The notes beneath the pieces were generated by a model. It ran no database searches. It was given only the letters and a program-made list of their open reading frames with translations, and was not told the origin of the DNA. Source: a virus. Taken from it: a stretch of DNA of 28,733 nucleotides. The stretch is taken from the IMG/VR virus record IMGVR_UViG_3300035136_000101; one strand, 5' to 3'. Numbering within the stretch: the first letter of the stretch is position 1; each line of letters begins with the position of its first letter. Position numbers and translations under genes: made by a program. This document shows positions 398-22,625 of this stretch, piece after piece.

Positions 398-3193
398 ATG
401 ACTGATTACACATATCCTGGGGTCTATATTCAAGAGGTTCCTAGTGGTCCTGGTCCGATTACTGGTGTTTCAACATCTAATTTGGGTCTTATTGGTTTTT
501 CTACCAAAGGTCCAGTTAATGAACCAATTATATCGACAAGTTTTCAGGAATTTTCGAACAGATTTGGAAGTTTTACAGAGAAGGGTTTATCTGCTCATGA
601 AGCGTTTGCTTTTTTCTCTAATGGTGGACAAGTTTTGTATTTTGTTAGGGTTGTGGCTAGTGATGCTGCAACAGCTTATTGGGATTTTGCTGCAACAGTA
701 TCAAGTGAAAATGTATCAAATACTGCTGAAGGAACAGGGATTTATGATTTGGAATTAGATCATTCTCCGGTTGTTCCTGCTACATTGACATTGACTTTTA
801 CAAATTCTGGTACACCAGCAAATCAAAACGTATTTGTTGCTGATGCTAGTGGTGTGTTAACGTTAGATACAACAGCATCGGGTGGTTCAGCTGATGGTGG
901 TACTGGTTCTGTTGATATGGAAACAGGGGAGATTCATGTAGAATTGACTACACCTGGTCAATTTACAGGAAGTACTGATTATATTGTAGCTGAATATAAT
1001 TATACGATATTCAGGTTTAGAATGGCATGGCCAGGATTGGCTGGGAATTATTTTAGAGTAAGGATAATTCCAGGAAGTGATGATTATCTTGTTCAGGCTG
1101 AAGCTAGGTGGACAAGATTTACAGTAATCGTTGAAGAAGATGTAAATTATGATGCAACAAATCGTTCATGGTCAATTGTTGAGACATGGGCAGATCTTGT
1201 ATTTGATGATTCAGAGGATCCAAATTTTGTTGCTACAGTAATAAATGCTGATGGTGCTGGGTCTGATTATATCGAAGTAGTTGATTATGGAAACGGAATG
1301 AATCCTGCAGCGCTTGCAGGAACACAAATTACGTCTGAGGATATTTCTGATACTCAATTACCACAAGGCAGCACTTCTACTCCTCCTGTTGCATATGACG
1401 GAACAACAAAGGCTTGGGAATATACATTGGCAAATGCTCCATTTCAGAAGACTTTGAATATGGATTTTCAGATGGCTGATGGCTTAGTATCTTTTACTGG
1501 TGCAGCCACAGCGGATAATGTAGTTCTTACAGATTCTGGAGCAAATTTTACTGGTGGTGGGGCAGCAGATAATTTAGCTGGTAAGATTGTTGTAAATATA
1601 TCAAAGGGAGCATCTGCAGTAATAACTGCAAATGATGCAACGACAATAACAGGTGTATTAACAGGTGGGGCTGTAACATGGTTAACAGGTGATTTGTATG
1701 CTGTTATTGAGGCATCAACAAAGATAGGAACAGGAACCGCTCAAGCAAGTGGTCAAGAATCTGTAATATCACCTGGTAATACATCAAATCCTGTTCAGAT
1801 TGTTCCTGGTTCAGTTGTGATGGAATTGACTCTTACTGGACCTACAACTGTTCATGTTATAGATGATGGATCTGGTAATTTATGGGATGGTTCTGGTGGG
1901 TCGTTGGCAACAATTGATTATACAACTGGTCAGATTACAGGTATAAGTCCTACAACTGATGATCTTATTACGATACAGAGTGTTACAGCATGGGCAAGTG
2001 ACACAGTTGCTGTTGGTAGCGAAATTAAATTTGGTTGTATATATGCAGTTCCAATTGCATTGGAGGATGATGCGGATGGGAATATGGTAATGTCAGATAC
2101 CCAAGCAACTGGGTATCCTGCTAAGTTTTCGCTTAATCTTGTTTCTGGTGTAAATACTGTTAATTATACAACTGGTGTTGTTGATTTAACATGGAAAATT
2201 GAGGGTAATCCAGTTGCAGGTCCAGCAGGAGTATATTCTGAAACAGCAGATTATTATACAAATCCAGATGATGAGATAGCAACGGTATTAACAGGAGGGT
2301 CTGATGGTTCTTCTGTTTCTAGTGATGATGTTGTAGGTGCAGATTTGGCAGTTGACCAGGAAGGCATATATGCTTTTGGAAAAGTAAATGCCTTGATGCA
2401 ACTTGTAGCTGCTGATTTTCAGACAGATACAAATGTTGCTGATGCACTTATTACATATGCTGAATTGGTGAAGGATAAATTTGTTATTTTGACGGTTCCT
2501 CATGGTCTTAGTTATCAAGAGGCTGTTAATTGGAAGAAATTTCAACTTAATAAATATACTTCATATGCTGCTTTGTATTATCCGCATATCAAGATTAAGG
2601 ACCCTGTGAGTGGAGTAAATCAGGATATTCCTGTTGGTGGACATGTAGCTGGGGTTTACGCAAGGACTGATACTATAAGAAATGTTGGTGAAGCTCCTGC
2701 TGGTACCGAAAAAGGTGTTTTGAATTGGTCAACTGGTCTTGAAGTTGAGTTGACTGATACACAGGTTGGTATTATATATCCAGAAAAGATAAATGCTTTA
2801 GTAGCATGGGCTAATACTGGACGTGTTGTATGGGGTGCTAGAACATTAGATATTTCTGGAGGTGAATGGCCATATATTCAGATGCGTAGGCTTTTCATGT
2901 TTGTTGAAAAATCAGTGTTTAATAGTACTCATTTGCATGTATTTAAAAATAATGGTTCTTCATTATGGAGTGCAATAAGAACTCAGGTCGTTTCTTTCTT
3001 GTTAGGTTTGCACCAATCAGGATATTTTGCTGGAAATAGTCCAGATGAGTCATTCTTTGTGATTTGTGACCGGTCAAATAATCCTCAGAATACAGTGGAC
3101 CAAGGTATCGTGTTTTGTGATGTAGGGATTGCACCTAATAAGCCAGCGGAATTCATAGTGTTCAGATTTCAGCAAAAGGCACTCACTAGTTAA
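398..3193 (+). CDS. contractile tail sheath protein, unusually long at 931 aa
   Basis: The N-terminus has the sheath signature Y-x-PGVYIQEV. The C-terminal ~200 aa (…VWGARTLDISGGEWPYIQMRRLFMFVEKSV…KPAEFIVFRFQQK) matches the conserved sheath C-terminal domain. A GGAG sits 6 nt upstream of the ATG. Confidence 0.9.
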   Translation: MTDYTYPGVYIQEVPSGPGPITGVSTSNLGLIGFSTKGPVNEPIISTSFQEFSNRFGSFTEKGLSAHEAFAFFSNGGQVLYFVRVVASDAATAYWDFAATVSSENVSNTAEGTGIYDLELDHSPVVPATLTLTFTNSGTPANQNVFVADASGVLTLDTTASGGSADGGTGSVDMETGEIHVELTTPGQFTGSTDYIVAEYNYTIFRFRMAWPGLAGNYFRVRIIPGSDDYLVQAEARWTRFTVIVEEDVNYDATNRSWSIVETWADLVFDDSEDPNFVATVINADGAGSDYIEVVDYGNGMNPAALAGTQITSEDISDTQLPQGSTSTPPVAYDGTTKAWEYTLANAPFQKTLNMDFQMADGLVSFTGAATADNVVLTDSGANFTGGGAADNLAGKIVVNISKGASAVITANDATTITGVLTGGAVTWLTGDLYAVIEASTKIGTGTAQASGQESVISPGNTSNPVQIVPGSVVMELTLTGPTTVHVIDDGSGNLWDGSGGSLATIDYTTGQITGISPTTDDLITIQSVTAWASDTVAVGSEIKFGCIYAVPIALEDDADGNMVMSDTQATGYPAKFSLNLVSGVNTVNYTTGVVDLTWKIEGNPVAGPAGVYSETADYYTNPDDEIATVLTGGSDGSSVSSDDVVGADLAVDQEGIYAFGKVNALMQLVAADFQTDTNVADALITYAELVKDKFVILTVPHGLSYQEAVNWKKFQLNKYTSYAALYYPHIKIKDPVSGVNQDIPVGGHVAGVYARTDTIRNVGEAPAGTEKGVLNWSTGLEVELTDTQVGIIYPEKINALVAWANTGRVVWGARTLDISGGEWPYIQMRRLFMFVEKSVFNSTHLHVFKNNGSSLWSAIRTQVVSFLLGLHQSGYFAGNSPDESFFVICDRSNNPQNTVDQGIVFCDVGIAPNKPAEFIVFRFQQKALTS

Positions 3194-3946: not shown

Positions 3947-4474
3947 ATGCGAGCAGCAAATACAGATTTCATGCAAGGTTTTAGATATCATGTTGTGGCA
4001 AATAATGGGGAGGGCGATCCACTTCAACCATCAGTTCAATCTGATCGTGATGGTCATGATACAAATGGTCAAGCTGGTTTTCAATCGGTTACAATTCCAG
4101 AAATTTCGGTGGAAGCAGCTGAATATAGAGAAGGTATTTTTAAATGGACAGAAAAATTTCCTGGTCCACCTACTGTATCAGAATTGACTATGATGAGAGG
4201 TATTACAAAGCGTGATACTACATTTTATGATATGGTAATGGCATCTGTTGAAGGTGCGGAATATCGAGCAGATGTAATAATATATCATTATCAGAGATCT
4301 GAGATGGATTTAGCTACATCAGCTACAGTTGGTGATGATATTCGTAGGATTGAGTGTGGAGAATGTTTTGCTATTCGTGCTAAACCAAATGGAGATTTGG
4401 ATTCTACGGCTGGAGATGTTTCTTTAGGTGAAGTAGATCTTGCAGTGGAAAAATTTGAAGTAAAATATTCTTAA
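3947..4474 (+). CDS. tail tube protein of the T4 gp19 / Afp1-like family
   Basis: The motifs FRYHVV…EISVEAAEYREGIFKWTEKFPGPPTVSELTMMRGITKRDTTFYDMV and C-terminal VEKFEVKY fit the gp19-type tube consensus (EYREGG…K.PG…LKRG). An AAGGAG RBS is present. Confidence 0.8.
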   Translation: MRAANTDFMQGFRYHVVANNGEGDPLQPSVQSDRDGHDTNGQAGFQSVTIPEISVEAAEYREGIFKWTEKFPGPPTVSELTMMRGITKRDTTFYDMVMASVEGAEYRADVIIYHYQRSEMDLATSATVGDDIRRIECGECFAIRAKPNGDLDSTAGDVSLGEVDLAVEKFEVKYS

Positions 4475-4495
4475 TATTTTTATGAAGGTGCATAA

Positions 4496-5053
4496 ATGGC
4501 AAGAAATCGTTTATTGGATTTTATGCAAACTCATAAATTTTGGCTATTCGATGTAGTTCCAAGTTTGTCTCCTCCTTTTTGGGTTTTAGGGACACCTTTT
4601 TTAGGTTTTTCAAGTATTACAGCACCACAATACACCGCTGAAGTTGATAATATAAAACAGATTAATTCTATGTTTCGGAAATATGCTTATTCTGGAGGAC
4701 AAGTTGATCCAATAGTATTGACAAGAGGTGTTCGTGGATTTGATGATACTATGTGGGAATGGATGTATAGAGCAATAACTGGTTTAGAGGTTACAAATAG
4801 ACATTTGTTATTGCTTCATTTTACGAATATTAGATTGTCTGATAGTCCTTTTCCAAATGTGGCTGAAGGATTTCAATTTCCGATGACTGCTGGAATTTTT
4901 CTTCCTGGTAAAGCATGGCTTCTTTGGAATTCTATTCCAATACGGTATAAAGCTGGATCAGATTTTGATGGTAAAAGTGGTGAAGTTAGTTTGGCTGAAT
5001 TAGAGGTTCAGCCAGAAGCTATAACAGAATTTACATTGTTAGATCCTGTATGA
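4496..5053 (+). CDS. second tail tube paralog (Afp5-like or tube-initiator-like)
   Basis: HKFWLFDV…FSSITAPQYTAEVDNIKQINSMFRKYAYSGGQVDPIVLTRGVRGFDDTMWEWM parallels the tube-family blocks. The C-terminus SLAELEVQPEAITEF resembles the tube C-terminus. The gene sits immediately after the first tube gene. Confidence 0.6.
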   Translation: MARNRLLDFMQTHKFWLFDVVPSLSPPFWVLGTPFLGFSSITAPQYTAEVDNIKQINSMFRKYAYSGGQVDPIVLTRGVRGFDDTMWEWMYRAITGLEVTNRHLLLLHFTNIRLSDSPFPNVAEGFQFPMTAGIFLPGKAWLLWNSIPIRYKAGSDFDGKSGEVSLAELEVQPEAITEFTLLDPV

Positions 5054-5066
5054 TAATTTATAGATA

Positions 5067-5546
5067 ATGGAATTTCAATATACTTCAACAATGACGAGAA
5101 GAGAACTTGCTGTAAAACTAATGAATGTTTTACGTGAAGGGTTCAATAAAAGATTCACAAAGAGAGCTTTTATTTCTCCTGTTCCAAGATCTTTTCCTGG
5201 TGGTCATGTAATGGTTATGTTGTCTCCGTTATATAATAAAAAAGGTGAAAATGTTGGTGAAATAAGGATTTATATCTATGTTTCAGAAGATGAAAATATA
5301 CCAATTCTTATAAGATCAGAATGGACAAGAAATGCATTTGGTTTTTGGTATAGATACGATAATAGATTATTTGATAAAGATAATGTAATAGTTGATTTGT
5401 ATTCAAAAATAAGAGACATTTCAAAATGGTTTTCTGTTACAGCAGATGGGACGGTTAAGGTTTTGTCAATGAATCGTATGTTTAGAAAAATAAAGAAAAC
5501 ATCTGCTCGTGACAAAGCAGTCAGAGTTGGAATGGTAATGGGATAA
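5067..5546 (+). CDS. hypothetical protein (159 aa)
   Basis: A complete ORF in the co-oriented tail operon. I recognise no family. Confidence 0.4.
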   Translation: MEFQYTSTMTRRELAVKLMNVLREGFNKRFTKRAFISPVPRSFPGGHVMVMLSPLYNKKGENVGEIRIYIYVSEDENIPILIRSEWTRNAFGFWYRYDNRLFDKDNVIVDLYSKIRDISKWFSVTADGTVKVLSMNRMFRKIKKTSARDKAVRVGMVMG

Positions 5547-5558
5547 GGAATTGGTAAA

Positions 5559-5882
5559 ATGAGGAATAGATTATCTGATTTTATTATTGATAAGCCGGTT
5601 AAAGAGGAACATGTATTATCTTACAAAGGTAAACGTCTTTTTAGGGCATTAAAATCCTTGGGAGAACGTTCCATTAAAGGACGTGATGTTGATAAATATA
5701 TTTTTGAAGTTGTATATAAAAATGGTGTAGAAACATTAAGAATGCTTATCGAAGGTAGACATGCTTTATCTATTAGTAATCAGATAGCAAAAGGACTTTC
5801 AAATATGGACGAACTCGAGTTCGTTGATGTTGTGAAAACAAAAAATGGTGCGAAGATTGTACTTCGTTCTATTGGAGAGTAG
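5559..5882 (+). CDS. hypothetical protein (107 aa); it contains one copy of the CGAACTCGAGTTCG palindrome in its coding sequence
   Basis: A complete ORF with a GGAATTGG RBS. The palindrome encodes DELEFVD. Confidence 0.4.
   Translation: MRNRLSDFIIDKPVKEEHVLSYKGKRLFRALKSLGERSIKGRDVDKYIFEVVYKNGVETLRMLIEGRHALSISNQIAKGLSNMDELEFVDVVKTKNGAKIVLRSIGE
5809..5824. repeat. palindrome ACGAACTCGAGTTCGT (copy 1 of the CGAACTCGAGTTCG motif), inside a CDS
   Basis: Read directly from the sequence. It is a perfect 16-bp palindrome. Confidence 0.9.
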
Positions 5883-7154: not shown

Positions 7155-7505
7155 TTATGTCAAACACTTATTGATCCATTCAGTAATGAGAGCATCATAG
7201 ATTTCACAGACATCGCATGGTTTAGTAAGAATATGTATATTGGGCATATCATATTTGAGTGTATAGTTTGCTGTATATATTACGAATGGTATTGTTGAAT
7301 GTTGAACTATTTTTAGTCCGTCTGATTTGTTTGGGCAATCCCAATCACTAAGGATTATGTCAAAATTTCCGTCTTGAAGAGCTATTAGTCCATCATCACA
7401 GGAATGTTTTATTGTTATACTTTTCCAAGTATTTTTCATTACTCTGGAAAGCATACGGGTAATTTGTTCATCATCATCGATGATTAGTAAATTCAGGTTT
7501 TTCAT
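7155..7505 (-). CDS. stand-alone response regulator receiver (CheY-like REC) domain protein
   Basis: LLIIDDDEQI…DIILSDWDCPNKSDGL…FVIYTAN…ILTKP carries all the conserved REC residues: the acidic DD pair, the phospho-acceptor Asp, Thr and Lys. It is 116 aa with no output domain. Confidence 0.75.
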   Translation of the reverse strand: MKNLNLLIIDDDEQITRMLSRVMKNTWKSITIKHSCDDGLIALQDGNFDIILSDWDCPNKSDGLKIVQHSTIPFVIYTANYTLKYDMPNIHILTKPCDVCEIYDALITEWINKCLT

Positions 7506-7883: not shown

Positions 7884-8063
7884 ATGCCAAGGTTGAATGT
7901 TGAAATAAAAAGTGGTGTATATAAGAGGTTTCTTGATCAATGTAAGGAGGATGGTAGAAGTGCTAGTGATGTTGTTAGAGAGTTGATTTTAGATTATGTG
8001 GAGAGAAGAGTTAGGGAAAAATTTAGGATTGCTAAAATAGAGAAAGAAGTTACAGATGAATGA
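7884..8063 (+). CDS. ribbon-helix-helix (CopG/Arc/ParD-like) DNA-binding protein, 59 aa, not in the ORF track
   Basis: ATG at 7884 is preceded by AGGAAGG. MPRLNVEIKSGVYKRFLDQCKEDGRSASDVVRELILDYVERR fits an RHH beta-strand plus two helices. The stop at 8061-8063 overlaps the next gene's ATG at 8056. Confidence 0.6.
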   Translation: MPRLNVEIKSGVYKRFLDQCKEDGRSASDVVRELILDYVERRVREKFRIAKIEKEVTDE

Positions 8064-8883
8064 GATGAACGATGAAAAGGTTATCGATGATAAAATTGTA
8101 TTAGGTAAGACAAAAGGTCATGTTCTTGATATAGGGCCAGGTTGTATTACTATTGAGTTGCCAGCAGGATATATTCATGAGGATGGAGAGCTTCACGTGC
8201 ATGCTGTATTACGTGAGATGAAGGGACCAGAAGAAGAATTGTTGGCTAGTAAAGGTTCAATAGTTTCTAGATTGAATGTTATAATGGGGAATTGTTTAGA
8301 GCAAATAGGGTCTATTAGTGATAAGTCTTTATTAAGAAAGATAGCTTGTAATTTGATAGCTCAAGATAGGATGGCTATTCTTTTGGCTCTTCGTAGGATA
8401 TCACTTGGTGATTTTTATGATTGTACAGTTACATGTCCAGAGTGTAATGTGAGTCAGCATGTTACGGTAAATTTATCAGAAATTGAAATTTCACCAATGC
8501 CAAATAGGATGGAAAGAGAAATGATTAATACTCTTCCTAGTGGAAGAGAAATTAAATGGCATGTGATAAGGACAGAAGATGAAGAATGGCTTACAGAGCA
8601 GCGTAAAAGAAAAAGAGATAAAGAACTTTTAACATTACATTTATTGTCTCGTGTTGATTCGATTGATGATATTGAAGTAGATAGAAAGAATAAGTATAAA
8701 GAAGCTATTGATTTGTTGATGGATTTATCGATAAGGGATAGAGCTACTTTGAGAGATCTTTTTGATAAAAAAGAAGATAATATAGATACGTTGGTGCAGT
8801 TTATGTGTGAGAGGTGTGGACATGAATGGGAAGGTAAGTTGGATGTTGGTCAGCCAAGTTTTTTCTTCCCATCGGTCAAATAG
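8056..8883 (+). CDS. hypothetical protein with two CxxC…CxxC zinc-ribbon motifs (275 aa)
   Basis: CTVTCPECN and CERCGHEW motifs are present. The gene is translationally coupled to the RHH gene. I recognise no family. Confidence 0.5.
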   Translation: MNEMNDEKVIDDKIVLGKTKGHVLDIGPGCITIELPAGYIHEDGELHVHAVLREMKGPEEELLASKGSIVSRLNVIMGNCLEQIGSISDKSLLRKIACNLIAQDRMAILLALRRISLGDFYDCTVTCPECNVSQHVTVNLSEIEISPMPNRMEREMINTLPSGREIKWHVIRTEDEEWLTEQRKRKRDKELLTLHLLSRVDSIDDIEVDRKNKYKEAIDLLMDLSIRDRATLRDLFDKKEDNIDTLVQFMCERCGHEWEGKLDVGQPSFFFPSVK

Positions 8884-9065: not shown

Positions 9066-9079
9066 CGAACTCGAGTTCG
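9066..9079. repeat. palindrome CGAACTCGAGTTCG (copy 2), 12 nt upstream of the tape-measure ATG
   Basis: Read directly from the sequence. It is a perfect 14-bp palindrome. Confidence 0.9.
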
Positions 9080-9090
9080 CGAGGTAAATT

Positions 9091-12075
9091 ATGGGTTTTC
9101 TTGGTATGTCATTAGAATTATCAGCTATTGATGATGGTATGAAATCAGCCATAGGGAAAGCAAGTGATTTACTTAATAATATAAATGAAATGATTCATGA
9201 CCAATTTAATGCGATAAGGAAGATAAAAAAAGAGGATTTTTTTAAAGGTATAAAAAGTGGTGCACAACAAGCTATTAAATCTATTAAGGATTTAAGTTTT
9301 GATTTTAAGTCGTTTTCTAATTTATTAGATAAGGTTGGAAAAAAATCATATGAGGTTTGGAAAAAGTTTGGAGATGGAATAAAAAAAGTTTCAGATGATT
9401 CTAAGAAACATATTGATAGTATGATGAAGCGTGTAACGCAGTTTAATATTGCTAATATGGCTTCAAATATGAAAACACTTACAGGGGAGACTGGTAATTT
9501 AACTAATAGTTTAGAAGCAACAATGACTAGTTTAATTCAAACGACAAAACCAATTGCTGCAACATTAGATTTATCAGGAAAGGAGATGAAGAAGTTTGCA
9601 GGTCAAGCGGCAAGTATGGCTTATAGTATGAATACATCGGCTGATGCTGTTGCAGAAACAATGAGATCAATTCATATAGCTAATAAGGGGGCAACAGAGG
9701 CTATGAATGAATTGGGATTGTCTACAAAAGATTGGGTTAAAGTTGTTCAAACAACTAATGTTCCTATGTCTGAATATACGGCTATTCTTGGTGATATGAC
9801 AACAAGTTGGCAAGCTTCACCAAAAGAGGCCGCTAATATGATTGACAGCCTTATGGCAATAGGAAAGGCTGCTGGAACTGGAACTGGTGCTGTAAAGAAT
9901 GCAAAAGTTCAGTTGGATGAATTAGGGGAAGTTTTTAAAACTTTGCCTCCTTCTATGGCAAGAACTTCTGATGAGATAATGAGCTTAATGCAATCATCAG
10001 CTAGAATGTCTGGTGTATTTAGAGAGATGGGAGATACGCAAGAAGAAGCTATAACAAAGGCAAATACTGTAGCAAGGATGTTTGCTGAACAGGATGTTGC
10101 TATTAGAAAAGCTTTAAATATTGGTGATGAACGTGCTCTTATGGATAATCCATTGCTTAAGTATCTTATGAGACTTGGTATTGGATTTGATTCGGCCAGA
10201 AAGATTATTGAAACTGGTAGTCGTGATGTAGTTGCTGGTATGAAGATGGTTAATAATGTTTATGCACGTTTTGGAACTGATGTGTCTCCACAGGTTCAAA
10301 GAGCTTTATCTGGATTAAGTGGTGCTCTTGGGGAAGGAGCTGCTGGATTATCATATTTGGCGACTAATACAAAACAAGGAACTGCTGCATTAGATAAAAT
10401 GGCAAATATGTCTGTTGTAGGTTCTGGAGCATTAAAGAAATTTGGAAAAGATGCATATAGTTCCGGGTTAACCTTACAAGAAACGTATGATAGAGCAAAA
10501 GAGTCATTTGATACAACTATTAGAAGTATATCCAGAGGAGATGTTAGAGGATTAGTTAGAAAACAGATAGAAGGAATGCGTCAAGCTGGTAAGGAATTAA
10601 AAAAACTTGGTTCTGATGAGACTTGGGGACCATGGATAAATGCTTTATCAAGATTTAGACAAATGGGTGTAGGTGGTATATTTTCAAGTGTTGCAGAGTC
10701 TACTGGCGTTGGTGCTGAAAATGCTGCTAAATTTGGTACCAAAGCAGGATTAATATTTGATACGGTAAGTCAACTTGGGGGTGAAATTGCTCCATTAATG
10801 CATTTATTTGGTATGACTGGTCCGCTAGGTCCATTGATTGCTATGGGAGGGTTAGGTGCATTGTTGGCTATGGATGAAGCTACTAGTAAGAAAATTTTAG
10901 GGTCATTTTATGATACATTTGCATCTTTAAAAAAGATGCTTCTTGGTGTTTGGGATGTATTTACTGATAAATTTGTTAGTATTTGGGATAATACAATAGC
11001 TCCAAAAATATCAGAAATTTGGAGTGAAATGTTATTGCCATATCTTGAGGAAACTACTCCAAGGATAGGAAAAGTATTTTTAGATGCATTCAAGTGGGCG
11101 TGGGATGCATTTTGGAGGGGAGATATGGAACAAGCACTTCTTGATGCAGAGAGGTTGAAAAAAACGGGTGTTTCTGGTCTTAGTGATAGAAAACTTGAAG
11201 AAATGTCTAAACGGAATGAAAAGGTTATAGAAGAAGAAACTAAAAATATAAATAGTCTTAAAACACTTACCATGGGAATGGGTGGTATTTCTGGTGGGTA
11301 TGCTCTTATGTATGCACCTGAGAGTAGGAAAATTGAAAAGGTTGAAGAATCTCAAAAAGCAATAGAGAGACAAAAAAAGTTTAGGAGAGATTTGGAAAAA
11401 TATGGGGCACCAAAGGCTGATATATTCACAGATGTAGCAGGTGTTTTTAGCGATTGGTCGGAAGGTGCAAAAAGTGGTGGAACAACTACTGGTGATTCAT
11501 TTGTTGAAGGAATTACAGATTCTTTGAAGAAGGGAAAAGATGTAGTTGATAAAAATGCAGGTTACGTAGCAGAAGGTGTGATATCTGAATCTCCAATTAA
11601 ATCTGGACCATTGGCTGGAGAGAAGGAAAATAATGCTGCATATCGTGGTGGTTATTTTACAATGGAGCAATTTGCTTTAGGTATTACTGATAGTACTGAT
11701 ATGATTAAGAGAGCAATTGAAGATACTCTTGCTGATTCTGTTATACTTACTATAGATACATATGCTGAAAAAATGAGAGATCTTGCTGAACAAAAGATGT
11801 TTTTAGCATCTGTTGCTAAAGCAATGGTAAAAGATTTAGGTGGAAATATAGAAACATCTATTGATTCCGAATCTGATATAAATGTGAAAAAGAATTTTGA
11901 AGCTGCTATGAATTTACCTGGTCTTGCTAGTGTTGTTTTGGCTGTTTCAAATGAAGGTGCTCAAACAAGGAAATTATTAAAACGTATTTTAGAAGAAAAT
12001 ATACGTCAAACCAGTGTAATGAGTGGCGGTGTGAGTATTTCTGTGACAGGAACTACTACTCCACCACCAAGTTGA
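9091..12075 (+). CDS. tail tape measure protein-like (994 aa)
   Basis: A long, helical, Ala/Met/Lys/Gly-rich protein with a hydrophobic Gly-rich segment (PLMHLFGMTGPLGPLIAMGGLGALLAM). It sits between the chaperone-like genes and the baseplate hub, with a GAGGT RBS. Confidence 0.65.
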   Translation: MGFLGMSLELSAIDDGMKSAIGKASDLLNNINEMIHDQFNAIRKIKKEDFFKGIKSGAQQAIKSIKDLSFDFKSFSNLLDKVGKKSYEVWKKFGDGIKKVSDDSKKHIDSMMKRVTQFNIANMASNMKTLTGETGNLTNSLEATMTSLIQTTKPIAATLDLSGKEMKKFAGQAASMAYSMNTSADAVAETMRSIHIANKGATEAMNELGLSTKDWVKVVQTTNVPMSEYTAILGDMTTSWQASPKEAANMIDSLMAIGKAAGTGTGAVKNAKVQLDELGEVFKTLPPSMARTSDEIMSLMQSSARMSGVFREMGDTQEEAITKANTVARMFAEQDVAIRKALNIGDERALMDNPLLKYLMRLGIGFDSARKIIETGSRDVVAGMKMVNNVYARFGTDVSPQVQRALSGLSGALGEGAAGLSYLATNTKQGTAALDKMANMSVVGSGALKKFGKDAYSSGLTLQETYDRAKESFDTTIRSISRGDVRGLVRKQIEGMRQAGKELKKLGSDETWGPWINALSRFRQMGVGGIFSSVAESTGVGAENAAKFGTKAGLIFDTVSQLGGEIAPLMHLFGMTGPLGPLIAMGGLGALLAMDEATSKKILGSFYDTFASLKKMLLGVWDVFTDKFVSIWDNTIAPKISEIWSEMLLPYLEETTPRIGKVFLDAFKWAWDAFWRGDMEQALLDAERLKKTGVSGLSDRKLEEMSKRNEKVIEEETKNINSLKTLTMGMGGISGGYALMYAPESRKIEKVEESQKAIERQKKFRRDLEKYGAPKADIFTDVAGVFSDWSEGAKSGGTTTGDSFVEGITDSLKKGKDVVDKNAGYVAEGVISESPIKSGPLAGEKENNAAYRGGYFTMEQFALGITDSTDMIKRAIEDTLADSVILTIDTYAEKMRDLAEQKMFLASVAKAMVKDLGGNIETSIDSESDINVKKNFEAAMNLPGLASVVLAVSNEGAQTRKLLKRILEENIRQTSVMSGGVSISVTGTTTPPPS

Positions 12076-12083
12076 GATATAAA

Positions 12084-12473
12084 ATGAGTATTGGAACAGA
12101 CCCAAATCCAAAGAAGAATTTATTGAGAGCTAGTACATTTTCTTATATGAATTTTATGCCTGAGCAGTTGATTTATGATAAGGAAAAGAATAATTTGATT
12201 AGATTTAGATCTATGTTTGAAATGCCTAATTGGGATGGTGTGGAGGATGGAGAATTTAGTTATGTTATTAGTGGGCAAAATGAACGTTTGGATAAAATAG
12301 CTGCTAAATTTTGGGGAATTGATAGACAGGAACTTTATTGGGTAATTGCAGCAAGAAACAATTTGGATCTTCCAGATGTTCAACTTTATCAAGGTAGGAC
12401 AATAAAAATTCCATCTAAAAGTTGGATAGATACATATTTGTTACCTCAAACACAGAATTATATTGAAAGATGA
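12084..12473 (+). CDS. LysM-domain tail protein (gpX / XkdP-like)
   Basis: The C-terminal YVISGQNERLDKIAAKFWGIDRQELYWVIAARNNLDLPDVQLYQGRTIKIPS fits a LysM fold. I place the start at ATG 12084 rather than the track's TTG at 12072. The gene overlaps the next by ATGA. Confidence 0.7.
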   Translation: MSIGTDPNPKKNLLRASTFSYMNFMPEQLIYDKEKNNLIRFRSMFEMPNWDGVEDGEFSYVISGQNERLDKIAAKFWGIDRQELYWVIAARNNLDLPDVQLYQGRTIKIPSKSWIDTYLLPQTQNYIER

Positions 12474-13798
12474 CAGTTAGATTTATAGATCCTGTTGCAC
12501 AAGTAATAATCAAAGACCATGAAAGTGGTGAGGAATGGCATTGGGGGTCTCCATCACATCCTTTTTTGACTTCTCTGACTATGATATGGGAAGGTGATAT
12601 GGTTATAACTGGCATAGTTATAGGTGTAGATATGCCTTATGATTATGCTATGACTGCGCTTGATGCATCAAAAACGCCATTTAAGAAAGATAATCTTGTG
12701 AGAGTTAGAATGGGATATGCATCAGGGGAATGGACAGAATGGGCTCATGGTGTATTAGCTGTTGGAGGAAAAGGATTATCAATAGGACCAGATGGTTTAT
12801 CTGGTAATTTAGAAGTTAGTCATGTACCGATGAAGCTATCGGGATATACAGTTTCGAAAGATATCTTGAAGAATGCTGGCTATGATGTTGAAAAATTATT
12901 AAAATTACTAGGGGAAGAGATAGGTTGCGAAGTTGATATAACATCAAATGCTTTATCAAATATGAATGCATGGAAACTTGCTGAACCAAGAACGATTTCT
13001 TATAAAGAAAAGGCTAATTTCTATGCTGGTCTTGAAGGTATGAGTATTTGGCAAATTTTTAGAACTGTTTGTAAAGATAATGATTGTTCATTTTTTATTA
13101 AGAAATATAAGGGTGAGAAGACAATAATTGTTCATACTGAAAAAGATATAACGAGTGGTAATTTGAATGAAACTGATTATGTAAATAAATATGTAATAAG
13201 AGGTATTGTAGACCCTTTAAATAATCAATATCCTTGTTTTGGATTTACACCTAAATCTGATGAGGCAGTGTGGTTGAGTAGGATACCTAGTTCTGCGTCA
13301 GCAGGAACAAATGGTAGGGGAATAGATTCTGAGACTGCTGAAGATGTTGAATATGATGTTAGGTCTGAAGACCAAGAAGATGCAAGAGATGGTAAAGTTG
13401 AGAATACTGAGCCACAAGATATAAAAACATCTGATGGATATGAAAAATATATAGCTGATGCTTTTAAAAATGATGGTTCTCTTGGAACTTTTATGAGTGC
13501 ACCAATTTTACCATATGGAACAGAAATTTTTAAAAATCAGGTTAGAAAATTTCAACGTCAAGGTGATCCTGGTATGCATATGGAAATAAACAGTATTGGT
13601 GTTCCTAGTGAAATGGTTGGTAATCTTTGTCAGTTGTGGGGTGCTGGTGTGTTATTTAATGGTACGTTTTGTATAGAGAAGATGGTTCATTCGTGGAGTC
13701 CTGGTTCATGGGAAATGCGATTGAATGTTTATAGACGTGGATATAAGGCTGTGTCTGGAGAGCAGAAAGAATCTTCTGGAGGTCAGCTTCCAAAATGA
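12470..13798 (+). CDS. baseplate hub protein (gpD / XkdQ / gp27-like)
   Basis: Sits between the LysM protein and the spike. The blocks LVRVRMGYASGEWTEWAHGVLAVGG and MSIWQIFRTVCKDNDCSFFIKKY are compatible with the gpD family. It overlaps both neighbours by ATGA. Confidence 0.5.
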   Translation: MTVRFIDPVAQVIIKDHESGEEWHWGSPSHPFLTSLTMIWEGDMVITGIVIGVDMPYDYAMTALDASKTPFKKDNLVRVRMGYASGEWTEWAHGVLAVGGKGLSIGPDGLSGNLEVSHVPMKLSGYTVSKDILKNAGYDVEKLLKLLGEEIGCEVDITSNALSNMNAWKLAEPRTISYKEKANFYAGLEGMSIWQIFRTVCKDNDCSFFIKKYKGEKTIIVHTEKDITSGNLNETDYVNKYVIRGIVDPLNNQYPCFGFTPKSDEAVWLSRIPSSASAGTNGRGIDSETAEDVEYDVRSEDQEDARDGKVENTEPQDIKTSDGYEKYIADAFKNDGSLGTFMSAPILPYGTEIFKNQVRKFQRQGDPGMHMEINSIGVPSEMVGNLCQLWGAGVLFNGTFCIEKMVHSWSPGSWEMRLNVYRRGYKAVSGEQKESSGGQLPK

Positions 13799-14745
13799 AA
13801 TGGATTGAATGGCTTAGGGATTATCTTGCAGATGTTACGCATGGTCTAGAGAGGTTCTGCGGTAGATATTATGGTAGTTATTTAGGAAGGGTAATTGATA
13901 TAGCAGACCCTGATAACAGGGGAAGGATAAGAGCTACATGTCCAGCTATAAATATGCCAAAGGCTGAAGATGTTCCAGGTGGATATTGGATATTACCATG
14001 TATGCCAGGGTTAGGAGAGGATTCTGATGGAAAAATGACTGGTATATTTCATCCTCCTGAAGAAGGTTCCCTTGTATGGATTCAGTTTGAATTTGGTGAT
14101 CCAAGAAAACCTTTATATATGGGAGGATTTTTAACAACTAGAAATACTTCCGATACATTTTTTTCTGATGATGCTGAAAAAAAAGGGCCATCAAAGAGAG
14201 GTATAAGAACAAAAGCTGGTCATTTTTTGAGGTTCAATGATGATCCAGATAAGTTGGAAATTACAATTGCTAGAGGAGATGGTGAAGGAGAGTCAACATC
14301 TCAATTTATAAGTATGACAACAGAAGGTCATACACTGATAACGAATAGTAATGGGTCTTCATTATATATGAATGCTGAAGATAATGAAACTACACTTCAG
14401 ACATTGGATTCTAATGGAAATGTATTATCGATGCTTTTTCTAGGTGATGACAAGATTACTTTGACTACAAAGTCAGGTGGTGCAATAGGTATAGATGGGA
14501 AAGATATTGTGTTAACAGGGGATAATGTTGTTGCAGATGCAAATAAACAATTTTCTGCAAATGCTGGTACTGTAATGCTTGGAAAAGGTGCATCTGAGCC
14601 AGCAATTAGGGGCAATAAGTTTGCTATTGGTTGGGGAATTATGCATCAGCATACTTCTACTGCTCCAGGAAGCCCTACAACACCAGGTGCAACACCTCCT
14701 GTGATGCTTTATAGAGAATTAAGTGAGAATGTTTTTATATCATGA
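13795..14745 (+). CDS. baseplate spike (gpV / VgrG-like OB-fold plus a beta-helical C-terminus)
   Basis: GRVIDIADPDNRGRIRATCP…GGYWILPCMPGLGEDSDGKMTGIFHPPEEGSLVWIQFEFGDPRKPLYMGG matches the Phage_base_V consensus. The C-terminal repetitive beta-strand region (…LITNSNGSSLYMNAEDNETTLQTLDSNGNVL…) is typical of a spike. Confidence 0.75.
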   Translation: MKWIEWLRDYLADVTHGLERFCGRYYGSYLGRVIDIADPDNRGRIRATCPAINMPKAEDVPGGYWILPCMPGLGEDSDGKMTGIFHPPEEGSLVWIQFEFGDPRKPLYMGGFLTTRNTSDTFFSDDAEKKGPSKRGIRTKAGHFLRFNDDPDKLEITIARGDGEGESTSQFISMTTEGHTLITNSNGSSLYMNAEDNETTLQTLDSNGNVLSMLFLGDDKITLTTKSGGAIGIDGKDIVLTGDNVVADANKQFSANAGTVMLGKGASEPAIRGNKFAIGWGIMHQHTSTAPGSPTTPGATPPVMLYRELSENVFIS

Positions 14746-15095
14746 GTAAATGTAAAATTGCATTATTACCTGTTCCTGGATTAGCGATACCTATTCCACA
14801 ACCACCATTTAGTATGCCGTCAAGGCCAAAGATACCTGGGATTCCAAAGACTCCTAATATACCTGGAATAAGTATTGAGGTTAAAATTCCAAAGTTAGCG
14901 ATACCTATACCGCAACCACCATTTAGTATGCCGGCAATACCTAAGATACCTAGGATTCCCGGTAAAGTACCTGGTATTGCGATTAGGGATTTTTCTGTTA
15001 AATTGGCAGTTCCTATACCACAACCACCATTTAGTATGCCAGCAAGGCCAAAGATACCTAATGTTCCTAAATTGCCAAGATGTCCTTTGGATTAA
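14742..15095 (+). CDS. proline-rich three-repeat protein at the PAAR/spike-tip position (non-canonical)
   Basis: 117 aa with three tandem repeats of LA(I/V)PIPQPPFSMP(S/A)xPKIP at 38/36-aa spacing. It overlaps the spike gene by ATGA and lies immediately upstream of the gp25-like gene. The other two forward frames are closed. Confidence 0.5.
   Translation: MSKCKIALLPVPGLAIPIPQPPFSMPSRPKIPGIPKTPNIPGISIEVKIPKLAIPIPQPPFSMPAIPKIPRIPGKVPGIAIRDFSVKLAVPIPQPPFSMPARPKIPNVPKLPRCPLD
14781..15060 (+). repeat. three in-frame tandem direct repeats (114 and 108 nt) inside the Pro-rich gene
   Basis: The core gcgatacctat(t/a)cc(a/g)caaccaccatttagtatgcc recurs at 14784, 14898 and 15006. Confidence 0.8.
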
Positions 15096-15098
15096 TTG

Positions 15099-15112
15099 CG
15101 AACTCGAGTTCG
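15099..15112. repeat. palindrome CGAACTCGAGTTCG (copy 3), in the intergenic gap before the gp25-like gene
   Basis: Read directly from the sequence. It shares the extended flank CGAACTCGAGTTCGTTG with copy 1. Confidence 0.9.
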
Positions 15113-15131
15113 TTGTGATAGGGTATAGAAT

Positions 15132-15560
15132 ATGAGTATTGTTAATACGGTTCCTTCTGCAAAAGATTTGGATATTATTAAGACGTTCAAGTTTCCATTT
15201 CAAATTGGTGCTGTTGGTTTTCCAGAAATGGAAGATCCAACAAAATATAGTTTTGCAAATATTGTAGCATTGCTTTTGACTGGTGTTGGAGAGAGGGTGA
15301 TGAATGTTGGCCTTGGGGTGAATGTTCATGATTTTTTGTTTTCAAATATGACACCTATTCAACAGGTTCGTCTTTCAAGTATGGTATCTACTGCTATAGA
15401 AACATTTATACCATGGGTTAATGTTATAAGTGTAATTCCTAGTCAATTGAAGTATGATGATGGTATTGGTTCTAAAATAACGTTTGATATTACGTATTCT
15501 GTTGGAGGACAGGACAGTACTCAACAAATAATTTATCCACCAACTGTACAAGGGTATTAA
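15132..15560 (+). CDS. baseplate wedge protein (gp25 / GPW-like)
   Basis: ANIVALLLTGVGERVMNVGLGVNVHDFLFSNM matches the GPW/gp25 core (iL.T..GeR…fG…l…lF). An AGGGT RBS is present. Confidence 0.75.
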   Translation: MSIVNTVPSAKDLDIIKTFKFPFQIGAVGFPEMEDPTKYSFANIVALLLTGVGERVMNVGLGVNVHDFLFSNMTPIQQVRLSSMVSTAIETFIPWVNVISVIPSQLKYDDGIGSKITFDITYSVGGQDSTQQIIYPPTVQGY

Positions 15561-15561
15561 A

Positions 15562-17742
15562 ATGTCAGATGACCAATATAGTCCGTTAGTTCCAGACCAA
15601 ACGTTTTTGAATGAAGTGAAATATGCTGCTCGAGATTTTGTTTCTATTGCTGATGATTTGCTTCGTAGATTAAAAATAGAATATGGTACCGTATATAATG
15701 ATTATGCAAGTACTTCTCAGGGGATAATGTTGAGAGACCTTGTGGCATGGGCTTATGCTGCTTTAACATGGTATTTGGATAGGACTGCATCAGATTGTTT
15801 TTTATCTACAGCAAGGACCAGAAGCGCAGTAGAACGACTTGTAGAACAAATTGCATATAAGATGACACCTGCTTCTCCTGCTGGAACTACGTTGGTTTTG
15901 ACTTTTCCTGGTGGAACTACATCAGGATTCATAATGAAAGATCGGTGGAGATTTCAAGGACCAAATGGATTGACTTTTGAGTCTTATGCTAAAATAACGC
16001 AATCATCTGCTTTGTCAGAAGGTGCAACAATAAATGTAGATGTAAGGCAAGGTGATACTAGGATATTAACTTATACTGCAAATGGTAGTAAGAATCAGAC
16101 ATATAGATTAGCCAATATTTTAGAAGATCGTTTTCTTGCTGTAGACGCTACTGAAGTATGGGTTGATGGTCAGTTGTGGGAAGAAAAGGATTTTTTAGAG
16201 TATGAAAAAACAAATCATTATGAGATTAGTTATTTAGCTAATCCACCGATTATTAGATTTGGTGATGGATTGGCAGGTAATATACCTGCGTCTGGTTCTG
16301 AGATAAAAATTCGTTTTTTGATTATTGATGGTAAAAATGGTAATGTAAGAAGTAATACAATACAATCTTCTATTGATACTTTGACGATAAATGGGCAACC
16401 TGTTTTATTTGATGTTAACAATACAAATCGTGCTGTAGGTGGATTAGATCCAGAAGATGCTGAGAAAGCAAAACGTTTGGCTCCTTCAAGTTTTGCTGCT
16501 CGTGGTGCTGCAATAACACAACAAGATTACGAGGCTCTTTCAAATAGTTTTGTAGATCCAGCATATGGGGCAGTTGCAAAAGCATATGCTGTTAATCCAA
16601 GGAGTTTTTATAGTGATACAGTATTTAATGCATTAGTTGTTGATATTCAAACGTTGCTTTTATCTTTTTCTAGTATTATTGGAGCAATGGAAGAGTCAGT
16701 AATTATTGATGCTGCATCTTTGACAACAGCTTTAGCATCAATAGAGACATCAGTGGATGAATTAGACACCTTAAGGCAACAAATATATAGTTGGTCTGGG
16801 GCTGCTTCTGCTGGTGCTTCTTCTGCTAGAAGTTCAATGAATGAGGCTTCTTCTAGAAGTACATTGGCTATGAATTTAGCTAATGATGCAATAAATACTG
16901 GTGAAGCATTAGTTCAATATATTCAGGATGGAAATACTAATATTGATCATATTTTGGCAGAAGTTAATAATATGCTTGTAGATATAACGGGTTCTCATCA
17001 GGAATCTACACAAGCTGCAAGTGTCGCATCTTCTGCATCTTCTGCTATAGAAAATGTTGTATTGTTAAATTCTAATAATATAATGAATGCTACTAATACA
17101 GATGGGGCTGTAGATATAGAAGTTAATAATATAGTTTCTCAAATATCTTCTTTGGCTATTCATATTAGTAATATTCAAAGTACTTTATCTTCTATAGATG
17201 GTAATTTTGATTCATTATCTTCTCAAATTAATTTAATTATGTCAGATATGAAAGATAGAATAGGCGTTTTATTTTCTGATGATTGTTTGTCAAATTATGT
17301 TCAGGTTCCTATTTTGTCATTAGATTTAGATGGTAATTATTCTTCTCCATCTATTGGATTGAGGTCTGCGTTACAAGAATATTTGGATGGAATAAAAGAA
17401 GTTACACAAGTTGTAGAGGTTGTTGATGGAATTTCTGTTCTTATTTTGGCTGACATTTCTATAAAAGTTAAGATTATTGAAGCATATGTTATTTCTGAAG
17501 TTAAATCTCAGATTGAATCTGTTGTTATAAGTCTTTTAAAGGGAAGAGAGTTTAATCAACCATTATATTTGTCTGATTTATATGATATTGTTACAGAATC
17601 TTCGGCTGGGATTAATTATGTGAATATTTCTATAACTGGACCAACTGATTATTTAGTAGATGGAAATCTTATTCCAGATTCAAATCAAGTGATAGTATTG
17701 GGAAGTCTTGTTATAAAAAATGAAATAGGAGAAATATTATAA
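15562..17742 (+). CDS. baseplate J-like (gp6 / gpJ) protein, extended to 726 aa
   Basis: The N-terminal region (FLNEVKYAARDFVSIADDLLRRLKIEY…GIMLRDLVAWAYAALTWYLDRTASDCFLSTARTRSAVERLVEQIAYKMTPASPAGTTLVLTF) fits the Baseplate_J consensus. It lies directly after the gp25-like gene and overlaps the next gene by TAATG. Confidence 0.7.
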   Translation: MSDDQYSPLVPDQTFLNEVKYAARDFVSIADDLLRRLKIEYGTVYNDYASTSQGIMLRDLVAWAYAALTWYLDRTASDCFLSTARTRSAVERLVEQIAYKMTPASPAGTTLVLTFPGGTTSGFIMKDRWRFQGPNGLTFESYAKITQSSALSEGATINVDVRQGDTRILTYTANGSKNQTYRLANILEDRFLAVDATEVWVDGQLWEEKDFLEYEKTNHYEISYLANPPIIRFGDGLAGNIPASGSEIKIRFLIIDGKNGNVRSNTIQSSIDTLTINGQPVLFDVNNTNRAVGGLDPEDAEKAKRLAPSSFAARGAAITQQDYEALSNSFVDPAYGAVAKAYAVNPRSFYSDTVFNALVVDIQTLLLSFSSIIGAMEESVIIDAASLTTALASIETSVDELDTLRQQIYSWSGAASAGASSARSSMNEASSRSTLAMNLANDAINTGEALVQYIQDGNTNIDHILAEVNNMLVDITGSHQESTQAASVASSASSAIENVVLLNSNNIMNATNTDGAVDIEVNNIVSQISSLAIHISNIQSTLSSIDGNFDSLSSQINLIMSDMKDRIGVLFSDDCLSNYVQVPILSLDLDGNYSSPSIGLRSALQEYLDGIKEVTQVVEVVDGISVLILADISIKVKIIEAYVISEVKSQIESVVISLLKGREFNQPLYLSDLYDIVTESSAGINYVNISITGPTDYLVDGNLIPDSNQVIVLGSLVIKNEIGEIL

Positions 17743-21725: not shown

Positions 21726-21746
21726 TAATAATATGAGAGGTATTTG

Positions 21747-22625
21747 ATGAATATATATTATATAAATTTGGACCGTTCAGAAGATAGAAGAGAAAAAATG
21801 GAGAAATCTTTTGAGCATGAAAAATTAATAAGGATATCCGCTATAGATGGCATGGAATGGGCTATTGAAGATACGTTTGATACTAGAGGGTTTCCTGTAT
21901 GGAATTTAGAGTATCGTGATAAATTTGTTAATGAAGGTATATTATTTGAAAATAGTATTCTTCCACCAACTCATGTTGCGTGTAATTTAAGTCATAGAAA
22001 GGCTATTCAGGAGTTTTTGAATACTGATGATGAATGGGCAATTATTATGGAGGATGATGTTGAAAAGTCAAAAGCTTATTTTAAAGATGGAGAATTGATA
22101 GAAAAAAAAGTAGTTATTCCTAGTGATGCTGATATGTTTTATTTATGTGGGACAAGACCAGATAGACGGATATACGTTTTTGATGATGGTCAAGTTAGAA
22201 AAACTAGGACATTGATGGGATATTGTATATCAAGAAGAGGTGCTGAATTATTTTTAAAATCAACAATACCAATGATGTGGCTTTCTGATTATCAATTTCC
22301 TGTTTGTTGTTTTGATAGTATGTTAAATAATATAAGAGAGATTAAAATAAGAGATAGAAAAATAGTTTTTAAAAAGCGTATATTATTTAAAGAGAACAAA
22401 GATGATAAAGGAAATATTATAAGGAAGAAAAAGGAATGTGTTTCATTTTCAATTCCAAATAAAGATAACTATAGGACTATAAAACCAATTTTTCCAAAGG
22501 AAATAGAAAGTGAAGAAAAGATAAAAGCTTTTGCTGATAAAAAAGATGGTTTAATAAGACATTCTATTTTGTCTAAGCAATCATTACTTGGTAATTATGA
22601 AGGACATGGGAAAAGATTTTATTGA
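21747..22625 (+). CDS. glycosyltransferase family 25 (LgtB/Lic2A-type LOS glycosyltransferase-like)
   Basis: The N-terminus NIYYINLDRSEDRREKMEKSFEHEKL…ISAIDG matches the GT25 signature (IsL.rs.eRR…AvDG). I place the start at ATG 21747, 6 nt after a GAGAGG RBS. The track's start at 21744 is a TTG. Confidence 0.7.
   Translation: MNIYYINLDRSEDRREKMEKSFEHEKLIRISAIDGMEWAIEDTFDTRGFPVWNLEYRDKFVNEGILFENSILPPTHVACNLSHRKAIQEFLNTDDEWAIIMEDDVEKSKAYFKDGELIEKKVVIPSDADMFYLCGTRPDRRIYVFDDGQVRKTRTLMGYCISRRGAELFLKSTIPMMWLSDYQFPVCCFDSMLNNIREIKIRDRKIVFKKRILFKENKDDKGNIIRKKKECVSFSIPNKDNYRTIKPIFPKEIESEEKIKAFADKKDGLIRHSILSKQSLLGNYEGHGKRFY

Follow-up and report, generated by a model that had tools for sequence, protein, structure and literature searches.

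The 28,733-nucleotide (nt) stretch of viral DNA analysed here (IMG/VR record IMGVR_UViG_3300035136_000101), called the window throughout, comes from an uncultivated myovirus, of which it represents the tail module according to Pfam and PHROG scans. Directly 3′ of its central spike gene lies a small open reading frame (ORF), designated X, whose product (MSKCKIALLPVPGLAIPIPQPPFSMPSRPKIPGIPKTPNIPGISIEVKIPKLAIPIPQPPFSMPAIPKIPRIPGKVPGIAIRDFSVKLAVPIPQPPFSMPARPKIPNVPKLPRCPLD) comprises 117 amino acids (aa), 27% of them proline, with no histidine and two cysteines. A first-pass annotation, performed on the sequence without database searches, had described X as a three-repeat protein encoded between the spike gene and a gp25-like wedge gene, at the place where a PAAR spike tip would be expected. 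The ORF, its repeats and its placement were all confirmed: PF04717 was detected in the upstream product and PF04965 in the downstream one, and the ATG of X shares the TGA stop of the spike gene in an ATGA overlap (Table 1). X belongs to an undescribed family, for which no description was found in Pfam, PHROGs, PDB sequences, cultured phage genomes or the literature searched, and its role is most likely that of a spike tip or accessory protein, which is a known role in itself.

At the DNA level, X contains three direct repeats of 65 nt, spaced by 114 and 108 nt and 83-89% identical, which agrees with the units of 108-114 nt initially noticed. In the protein, the repeats follow the consensus [GK]LA[IV]PIPQPPFSMP..PKIP..P, in which the phenylalanine anchors at residues 23, 61 and 97 define periods of 38 and 36. 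The nucleotide changes observed among the repeats fall mostly in third codon positions, the reading frame is kept in all relatives, and the ratio of nonsynonymous to synonymous substitution rates (dN/dS) relative to orthologues was 0.18-0.25 at saturating dS. X is therefore a real coding sequence under purifying selection. An ORF arising by chance over a DNA repeat could be suspected from the low complexity of the sequence, from the 144-aa antisense ORF that overlaps X (14895-15329), and from the GenBank record MW202476.1, whose X homologue is unannotated, a 151-aa ORF (4940-5395) being called instead in a different frame. However, such an origin is refuted for practical purposes by the dN/dS values and the third-position changes, as well as by the preservation of start, stop, length, both cysteines and repeat number across lineages sharing approximately 30% identity.

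X is the last member of a chain of five genes joined by 4-nt overlaps, in which it is preceded by the tape-measure, LysM, putative hub and spike genes. This hub/spike block is delimited by a perfect palindrome (CGAACTCGAGTTCG) present in three copies in the window versus none expected, the copy at 9066 marking the start of the block and that at 15099 its end. The palindrome was found 3′ of the X stop in every locus of the window's clade (L001-L004, L007, L012, L018, L020, L021 and L024); its arms (CGAAC/GTTCG) are kept even at 50% protein identity, and its 4-nt centre varies among relatives. Its probable role is that of a phage-specific hairpin, for regulation, processing or termination, by which tail operons are delimited. 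Together, the overlap chain and the palindromes at its bounds indicate that X is expressed together with the hub/spike block, as its final gene, and not with the wedge genes.

Table 1. Coordinates of X, of its neighbourhood in the window and of X homologues in other loci (HMM, hidden Markov model).
Feature	Position	Strand	Remarks
Gene X	14742..15095	+	ATG start, 117 aa, three proline-rich repeats
Cys4 codon (N-terminal MS[KRN]C motif)	14751..14753	+	Proposed half of a clasp; invariant in clade alignments
Repeat 1 core (LAIPIPQPPFSMPSRPKIPGIP)	14781..14845	+	Reference copy
Repeat 2 core (LAIPIPQPPFSMPAIPKIPRIP)	14895..14959	+	89% identity with repeat 1
Repeat 3 core (LAVPIPQPPFSMPARPKIPNVP)	15003..15067	+	83% identity with repeat 1
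CPLD motif (Cys114)	15081..15092	+	Proposed other half of the clasp; invariant in alignments
Central spike gene	13795..14745	+	316 aa, OB domain and β-helix; PF04717 (Phage_base_V), E 6.6e-11
HQH (His284-Gln-His286) of the spike	14644..14652	+	Apex-type histidine-cage motif; invariant in clade alignments
Spike C-terminal 30 residues past HxH (TSTAPGSPTTPGATPP-VMLYRELSENVFIS)	14653..14742	+	Highly conserved; candidate docking site of X
gp25/gpW-like wedge gene (sheath initiator)	15132..15560	+	Opens the next block; PF04965, E 7e-8; phrog_261, E 6e-12
Palindrome CGAACTCGAGTTCG	15099..15112	.	Just 3′ of the X stop, 20 nt before the gp25 start
Palindrome CGAACTCGAGTTCG	9066..9079	.	12 nt before the tape-measure start
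Palindrome CGAACTCGAGTTCG, third copy	5810-5823		
Sheath gene	398-3193	+	931 aa
Two gp19-like tube genes	3947-5053		
gp26-like gene (T4_baseplate)	8056-8883		
Tape-measure gene	9091-12075	+	Family annotation
LysM protein gene	12072-12473	+	Family annotation
442-aa protein in the hub slot	12470-13798	+	Called hub by position; no HMM match
gp6/J-like gene	15562-17742		Large distal proteins beyond
X homologue	L029:7353-7670		
X homologue	L030:4779-5102		TTGA overlap with the spike gene
X homologue	L032 (GenBank MW202476.1):4938-5249		103 aa, MC...ECPFD, three repeats
X variant	L028:3248-3532		94 aa

In every locus read (10 distinct ones in the window's clade, plus six Mu-like modules), X or a homologue was located directly 3′ of the spike gene or of the gene in the spike slot, usually overlapping its stop by 4 nt or lying within 7 nt of it. 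Only three to five family members (P0001, P0002 and P0003 among them) were recovered from 5.8 billion protein clusters by a word-indexed search, and further X loci of the same clade were obtained from viral, metagenome and metagenome-assembled genome (MAG) collections, all of them placed between an HxH-bearing spike gene and gp25. One of the clade contigs, L026 (CAYUTF010000016.1, 53 kb), whose X is identical to that of L018, was binned in an 'uncultured archaeon' MAG, either by mis-binning or as a hint of the host. An exhaustive HMMER search of 1.84 billion representatives gave eight hits, including P0009 (E 6e-4), and P0010 was gained with a mixed profile. Both P0009 and P0010 are encoded in Mu-like modules, in which X follows the tape measure, DNA_circ_N, a gp44-like hub and a gp45-slot protein and, in L025, precedes a gp46-like gene. 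The hub of L023, used as bait on viral contigs, led to three further loci, and additional members were then called by position in L029, L030 and L032, as was the variant in L028; with P0009, P0010 or the L025 hub as query, viral contigs yielded nothing. Of the eight HMMER hits, P0005, P0006 and P0008 were rejected as family members, being spurious repeat proteins (AHNAK-like, fibre-like). The X profile weakly matches the giant eukaryotic AHNAK-like proteins P0005 and P0006 (E 4e-10 and 6e-8), made of MPKFKMPSFG... units, which was judged to reflect convergent repeat composition and not homology.

Neither X nor five distant members matched any family in Pfam or PHROG. When 50,697 phage genomes were searched by tblastn, no match was obtained with X, P0009 or the proteins of L029 and L030 either, which is weak evidence as the low-complexity filter was on. 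Low-complexity, GC-rich X genes are probably missed in a systematic way by gene callers and filters, which would explain their rarity in protein databases.

When all 18 tail proteins of the window were compared by phmmer with all ORFs of five Mu-like loci, only X gave matches, and only with X homologues (E 2e-7, 3e-6 and 9e-5). None of 301 composition-matched decoys (reversed sequences, shuffles and repeat-preserving shuffles) hit an X homologue, the best decoy reaching an E value of 9e-4. The spikes, in turn, are unrecognizable between the lineages. It has been reported that, within contractile injection systems, no proteins are more conserved than the tip proteins, and that T4 gp5.4 and P1 UpfC were the only matching tail proteins (PMC12407873). 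The finding of X as the sole cross-lineage match mirrors this published pattern for spike tip proteins (PMC12407873). The first-pass annotation had made its proposal depend on homologues neighbouring spike genes, and this linkage was upheld in all of them, with the other tail proteins showing no detectable similarity.

The members of the family present a length of 103-121 aa (94 in L028), a first cysteine at residue 2-8, a C-terminal CP[LF][DN] motif and, apart from L028, a repeat unit of 33-42 aa that recurs three times. The window protein conforms to this signature: it has Cys4 and Cys114-Pro-Leu-Asp, with a distance of 110 residues from one cysteine to the other, repeats spaced by 38 and 36, and the ATGA overlap with the spike gene. 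All members lack histidine and have exactly two cysteines, other than L028, which has four, and their proline content ranges from 14 to 32%. The first cysteine, often within MS.C, is at residue 2-8 in all Mu-like members, the CP[LF][DN] motif is found in 13 of 13 lineages, and no residues of the family are better conserved than Cys4 and Cys114. Therefore, the initial claim that the protein has no His/Cys ligands stood for histidine and failed for cysteine.

The distance between the two cysteines follows the repeat period. In the window protein, the 110 residues from Cys4 to Cys114 equal 3 x 36.7, and the 'virtual' period running through both cysteines is 36. This span is 107-114 residues in the window clade and 100, 100, 100, 100 and 98 in five Mu-like lineages, approximately three times the internal period. 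Moreover, the two ends of the L029 protein, when joined, reproduce the junction between internal repeats (...IPC + MCDFPSLELP versus ...WPSFDFDLPSLELP). The three-repeat architecture is kept down to approximately 30% identity, being present in five of the six Mu-like proteins, and the repeats of the family are built on hydrophobic-Pro-hydrophobic-Pro cores, which L028 lacks. The three-fold pseudo-symmetry supposed from the start is consistent with this geometry, which fits a self-closed pseudo-three-fold object with its invariant cysteines three periods apart. Three other readings of the cysteines and of the composition were discarded. A CaaX-like prenylation signal does not suit the CPLD motif, beyond which P0010 has four residues. 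A lipoprotein or o-spanin-like nature is at odds with a cysteine at residue 4 (2-8 in the family), with no hydrophobic signal segment before it, and with a gene inside a tail operon. Finally, a role as proline-rich antimicrobial peptide or in DNA binding is at odds with the lack of a conserved net charge, which runs from +13 in the window protein to -9 in L029.

The spike gene next to X was also examined. The profile of the window spike matched the OB domain and β-helix of VgrG from type VI secretion systems (T6SS) (8gra, E 3e-14). Its C-terminus (...GWGIMHQHTSTAPGSPTTPGATPPVMLYRELSENVFIS) presents the HQH motif at residues 284-286 of 316 in 10 of 10 clade spikes, one of them only 50% identical, followed in the window spike by PGSPTTPG, to be compared with P2 HTHKHPGDSGGTTG (HTH..PGDSGGTTG) and Mu HIHRGDSGGTTG (HIH.GDSGGTTG). 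A C-terminal HxH is considered diagnostic of a built-in Fe-binding apex and an argument against a separate tip protein; it was proposed that HxH-bearing spikes have no tip protein and that HxH-less spikes carry one (bioRxiv 10.1101/2023.02.25.529910; PMC12407873). By its HQH motif and its PF04717 OB domain, the window spike would be of the gpV type with a built-in apex, but its HxH is placed 30 aa from the end. The comparison of the window spike with P2 gpV by BLASTP was not significant, and its C-terminal 75 aa gave only noise against PDB sequences; in the absence of significant homology statistics, the apex assignment is based on the HxH and PG.S..TT.G motifs.

The distance from HxH to the C-terminus is 30-32 aa in the window clade versus 12 aa in P2 gpV (...HTHKHPGDSGGTTGSPL) and Mu gp45 (...HIHRGDSGGTTGPMQ), which corresponds to 18 extra conserved residues; neither Mu nor P2 has an X. 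Among the Mu-like gp45-slot proteins adjoining X, six of six had no HxH in their last 60 aa, and those of L023 and L025 gave a probability below 1% when aligned with the window-spike profile by hhalign. Since HxH is absent from the Mu-like spikes and extended beyond in the window clade, every X-associated spike has a non-canonical end. A co-variation of the X core with spike Tyr306 was considered and rejected, as it was not clean and L020 breaks the pattern.

These spike ends bear on the partner of X. X could be an extended hydrophobic plug or cement of the hub or tube lumen, lining the three-fold hub wall or binding the trimeric C-terminus of the tape measure, and released at spike exit. Its last position in the overlap chain that runs from tape measure to spike would fit such a function, as would its strong hydrophobicity, some members being nearly charge-free (Lys plus Arg 0-1 in L021, L029 and L030), and the long hydrophobic helical segment of the L028 variant; three-fold repeats, in turn, suit any trimeric partner. 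Nevertheless, X always abuts the spike gene and not the hub or tape-measure gene, and the fact that it correlates with non-canonical C-termini of spikes speaks for the spike end, so that a lumen location appears improbable.

The presence of an apex motif in the spike also affects the expectation of a PAAR protein. The premise that a PAAR tip should be encoded at this position was not sustained, because the invariant HQH and the PGSPTTPG of the spike are, by the published rule, the marker of a built-in apex. Considering that HxH marks such an apex, a separate PAAR is probably not expected in the window phage, and none was found among the plus-strand ORFs of at least 90 aa in the 28.7-kb module, where a real PAAR gene would have weakened the idea of X as a tip. 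Judged by the defining sequence features of that family, X is not a PAAR protein. It has neither the PAAR string, as previously observed, nor the Gly-rich G.PAAR.GD pattern. No Pfam match at E <= 1, to PF05488 and DUF4150 or to any other family, was obtained for the window protein, and the P0009, P0010, L028, L029 and L030 proteins had no match in the same searches. The possibility of a highly diverged PAAR-repeat protein is evoked by the similar size (~100-120 aa), the three-fold internal repetition, the adjoining spike gene and the MPARP/MPSRP strings, which are vaguely PAAR-like. It was already disfavoured and is very improbable considering the lack of family match, pattern and histidine and the AlphaFold2 models from shallow alignments, in which no β-cone was predicted.

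AlphaFold2 produced no secondary structure for X (predicted local distance difference test score, pLDDT, 59; predicted template modelling score, pTM, 0.11) or for P0009 (pLDDT 49, pTM 0.12), which is weak evidence as the alignments had three and five sequences, respectively; the pLDDT was slightly higher across the repeat cores. Such shallow models show no autonomous fold, as would be expected if the chain became ordered only when bound to a partner.

The reading that is favoured, although tentatively and at somewhat less than even chances, is that X would be an accessory of the spike complex, with one chain per spike trimer and one repeat per subunit, forming a ring clasped by its two cysteines and acting as a non-PAAR tip, cap or collar. 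It is based on the synteny with the spike gene, the five-gene operon chain, the repeat architecture, the cysteine span, the cross-lineage match, the correlation with spike ends and the purifying selection. Each repeat would present the same hydrophobic, proline-lined motif ([LI][AS][IV]P[IV]P.[PA]PF[SG].P..P..P). Proline at every second position (A-I-P-I-P-Q-P-P) would leave a strand able to form hydrogen bonds along one edge only, which would suit the capping of an exposed β edge, and the (x-Ile/Leu-Pro)n stretches repeat every three residues, as would suit an amphipathic polyproline-II helix. The gp38-type adhesins use polyglycine-II helices, whose geometry is close to that of the polyproline-II stretches expected in X. 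The three repeats would bind at equivalent sites, one on each spike subunit, most likely at the non-canonical C-terminal end of the spike, and the N-terminal cysteine and that of CPLD would meet in space, where a disulfide or a shared metal could close the pseudo-three-fold ring. In a three-fold pseudo-symmetric object, residues three periods apart coincide, and a clasp is therefore the simplest reading of the cysteine span. The presence of X on the virion, its 1:3 stoichiometry, its docking site and the clasp are thus predictions from sequence. On a broader scale, X might represent a new class of monomeric tip or collar, replacing both PAAR and the HxH apex in many Mu-like phages and supplementing a modified apex in the window clade, an extension which seems rather doubtful at present.

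Several observations weigh against X as a clasped tip or collar. The spike of the window clade already has the HxH apex marker, for which the published rule predicts no separate tip, and the 'spikes' of the Mu-like modules were called by position and by sub-threshold Phage_Mu_Gp45 matches only (E 0.003-0.05). Within the clade, the dN of X is 2-4 times that of the adjacent spike and gp25 genes, a pace unlike that of classical tip proteins. Moreover, forms with fewer repeats are present in assemblies, namely a two-repeat allele in L002:3664-3903 (P0001, 79 aa) and a one-repeat form in L024:23-154 (P0007, 43 aa), both from near-identical phages; if real and functional, they would break the model of one repeat per subunit. 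In L002, the deletion junction lies within an identical repeat core and the last repeat carries a conversion tract of ~20 nt from repeat 2, which indicates active recombination between repeats. The L024 form may be an assembly collapse, in a contig (Logan) that starts 22 nt before the gene. In L021 (Ga0316196_10021497), the most distant clade member, an in-frame TGA occupies the position of Cys4 (2355-2369, reading M-A-S-K-TGA-N-I-P...), and the remainder of X is intact, with its three repeats and CPLD. This TGA could be a mutation, a sequencing error or be bypassed by a TTG restart at 2390. Selenocysteine was rejected as unsupported for this codon, with no Rfam hit, no structure resembling a selenocysteine insertion sequence (SECIS) and a downstream fold z of -0.29.

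The last of these observations concerns L028, which keeps an MPC... start and an ...SCPLNG end and has, instead of the repeats, a proline-rich stretch and a hydrophobic helix of ~45 residues. The conserved anchor could accordingly be formed by the cysteine-bearing termini, with the middle as an exchangeable part. A variable middle between conserved cysteine-bearing ends, as well as a hydrophobic, proline-rich composition, could also be envisaged in a membrane-active cargo or effector carried on the spike, which would be delivered into the host envelope and help to open the outer or inner membrane, and the spike is known to reach the periplasm (PMC12407873). Such a function is considered distinctly improbable, since a net charge from +13 to -9 offers no conserved electrostatics for membrane binding, selection acts on the repeat core as well as on the ends, and nothing resembling a known effector or a holin-like protein was found; it also overlaps with the docking of X on the spike rather than excluding it.

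The adjacency and translational coupling of X to the gene of a trimeric spike fit an assembly chaperone equally well, and this is the main rival of a structural tip. X would then be an assembly factor absent from the virion, whose three motifs would hold the nascent spike chains in register during the folding of the intertwined β-helix and apex, after which it would leave. Three equivalent binding motifs, the lack of an autonomous fold in the shallow AlphaFold2 models and an evolution faster than that of the structural neighbours are all compatible with this function, for which the tail-fibre assembly proteins, encoded directly downstream of the fibre gene, offer an analogy; in addition, a structural tip is not obviously needed by a spike with its own apex motif, as in the window clade. 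On the other hand, the P2 β-helix folds without the apex (bioRxiv 10.1101/2023.02.25.529910), and Mu and P2 need no such factor. Furthermore, a chaperone would leave unexplained both the three-period span of the cysteines and the persistence of CPLD across lineages whose spikes are unrecognizably different, and X matches no chaperone family in Pfam or PHROGs. Overall, a chaperone is regarded as unlikely.

Regarding the remainder of the tail module, the sheath protein is unusually long, since its canonical domains occupy the last ~260 residues and are preceded by an insertion of more than 600 residues without family match. A family-25 glycosyltransferase of the lipopolysaccharide-biosynthesis type (PF01755, E 5.8e-12) is encoded among the distal tail and fibre genes (21744-22625, plus strand). 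The sole sizeable minus-strand ORF of the module (7155-7505, 116 aa) gave a sub-threshold match to a response-regulator receiver domain (PF00072, E 2.7e-6, 28.0 bits versus a cut-off of 30.2).

Among known systems, the PAAR tips (PF05488), such as T4 gp5.4 and the T6SS PAAR proteins, share with X a size of ~100 aa, three-fold internal pseudo-repeats, a gene beside that of the spike and an unusual conservation across otherwise unrecognizable tail modules (PMC12407873 for the PAAR side). One PAAR monomer is thought to sit on the spike trimer, and the same stoichiometry is proposed for X. Unlike PAAR proteins, X has no match to their sequence, motif or histidines, and it presents two cysteines at its extreme ends, 14-32% proline, ΦPΦP cores (Φ, hydrophobic) and no predicted β-cone; besides, it co-occurs with an HxH-bearing spike in the window clade. 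The built-in Apex of P2 gpV, Mu gp45 and R-pyocin PA0616, with its Fe-binding HxH cage, concerns the same end of the spike, and the HQH and PGSPTTPG of the window spike resemble those of P2 and Mu. However, the Apex belongs to the spike polypeptide itself and X is encoded by a gene of its own, and the X-bearing loci deviate from the canonical Apex, with no HxH in the six Mu-like spikes and 18 extra residues past HxH in the window clade.

A precedent for a non-PAAR tip beside the spike gene is provided by RB43 orf205w, a proposed spike tip encoded just after the spike gene (PMC12407873). Like X, it is not a PAAR protein, occupies the post-spike slot and was proposed to cap the spike, but it has ~690 aa and is largely α-helical and unrepeated, whereas X is short, proline-rich and three-fold repeated. 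Similarly, the genes of the P2 gpG and Mu U chaperones and of T-even gp38 lie immediately downstream of that of a trimeric β-structured protein, and gp38 is a monomer that caps the end of trimeric gp37 (PMC12407873). X differs from these fibre assembly and tip proteins by the lack of any sequence relationship, by its central-spike target and by the lack of receptor-binding loops.

In the current view, spikes are finished either by a fused Fe-binding HxH apex or by a separate PAAR cap, with RB43 orf205w as one proposed exception. Here, a third small protein, unrelated to these in sequence, consistently fills the tip slot, both in six Mu-like modules whose putative spikes are HxH-less and in a separate clade whose apex is modified. 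In practice, X can also serve as a marker, being the only tail protein recognizably common to the window clade and the Mu-like lineages. It further reveals that low-complexity structural genes of phages are systematically under-annotated, so that the family may be much larger than database counts suggest. If X is present on the virion, it would add a novel design, in which one chain forms a three-fold collar held by a cysteine clasp, and would explain how spikes devoid of both HxH and PAAR are finished, providing a compact handle for the engineering of phage, tailocin and injection-system spikes.

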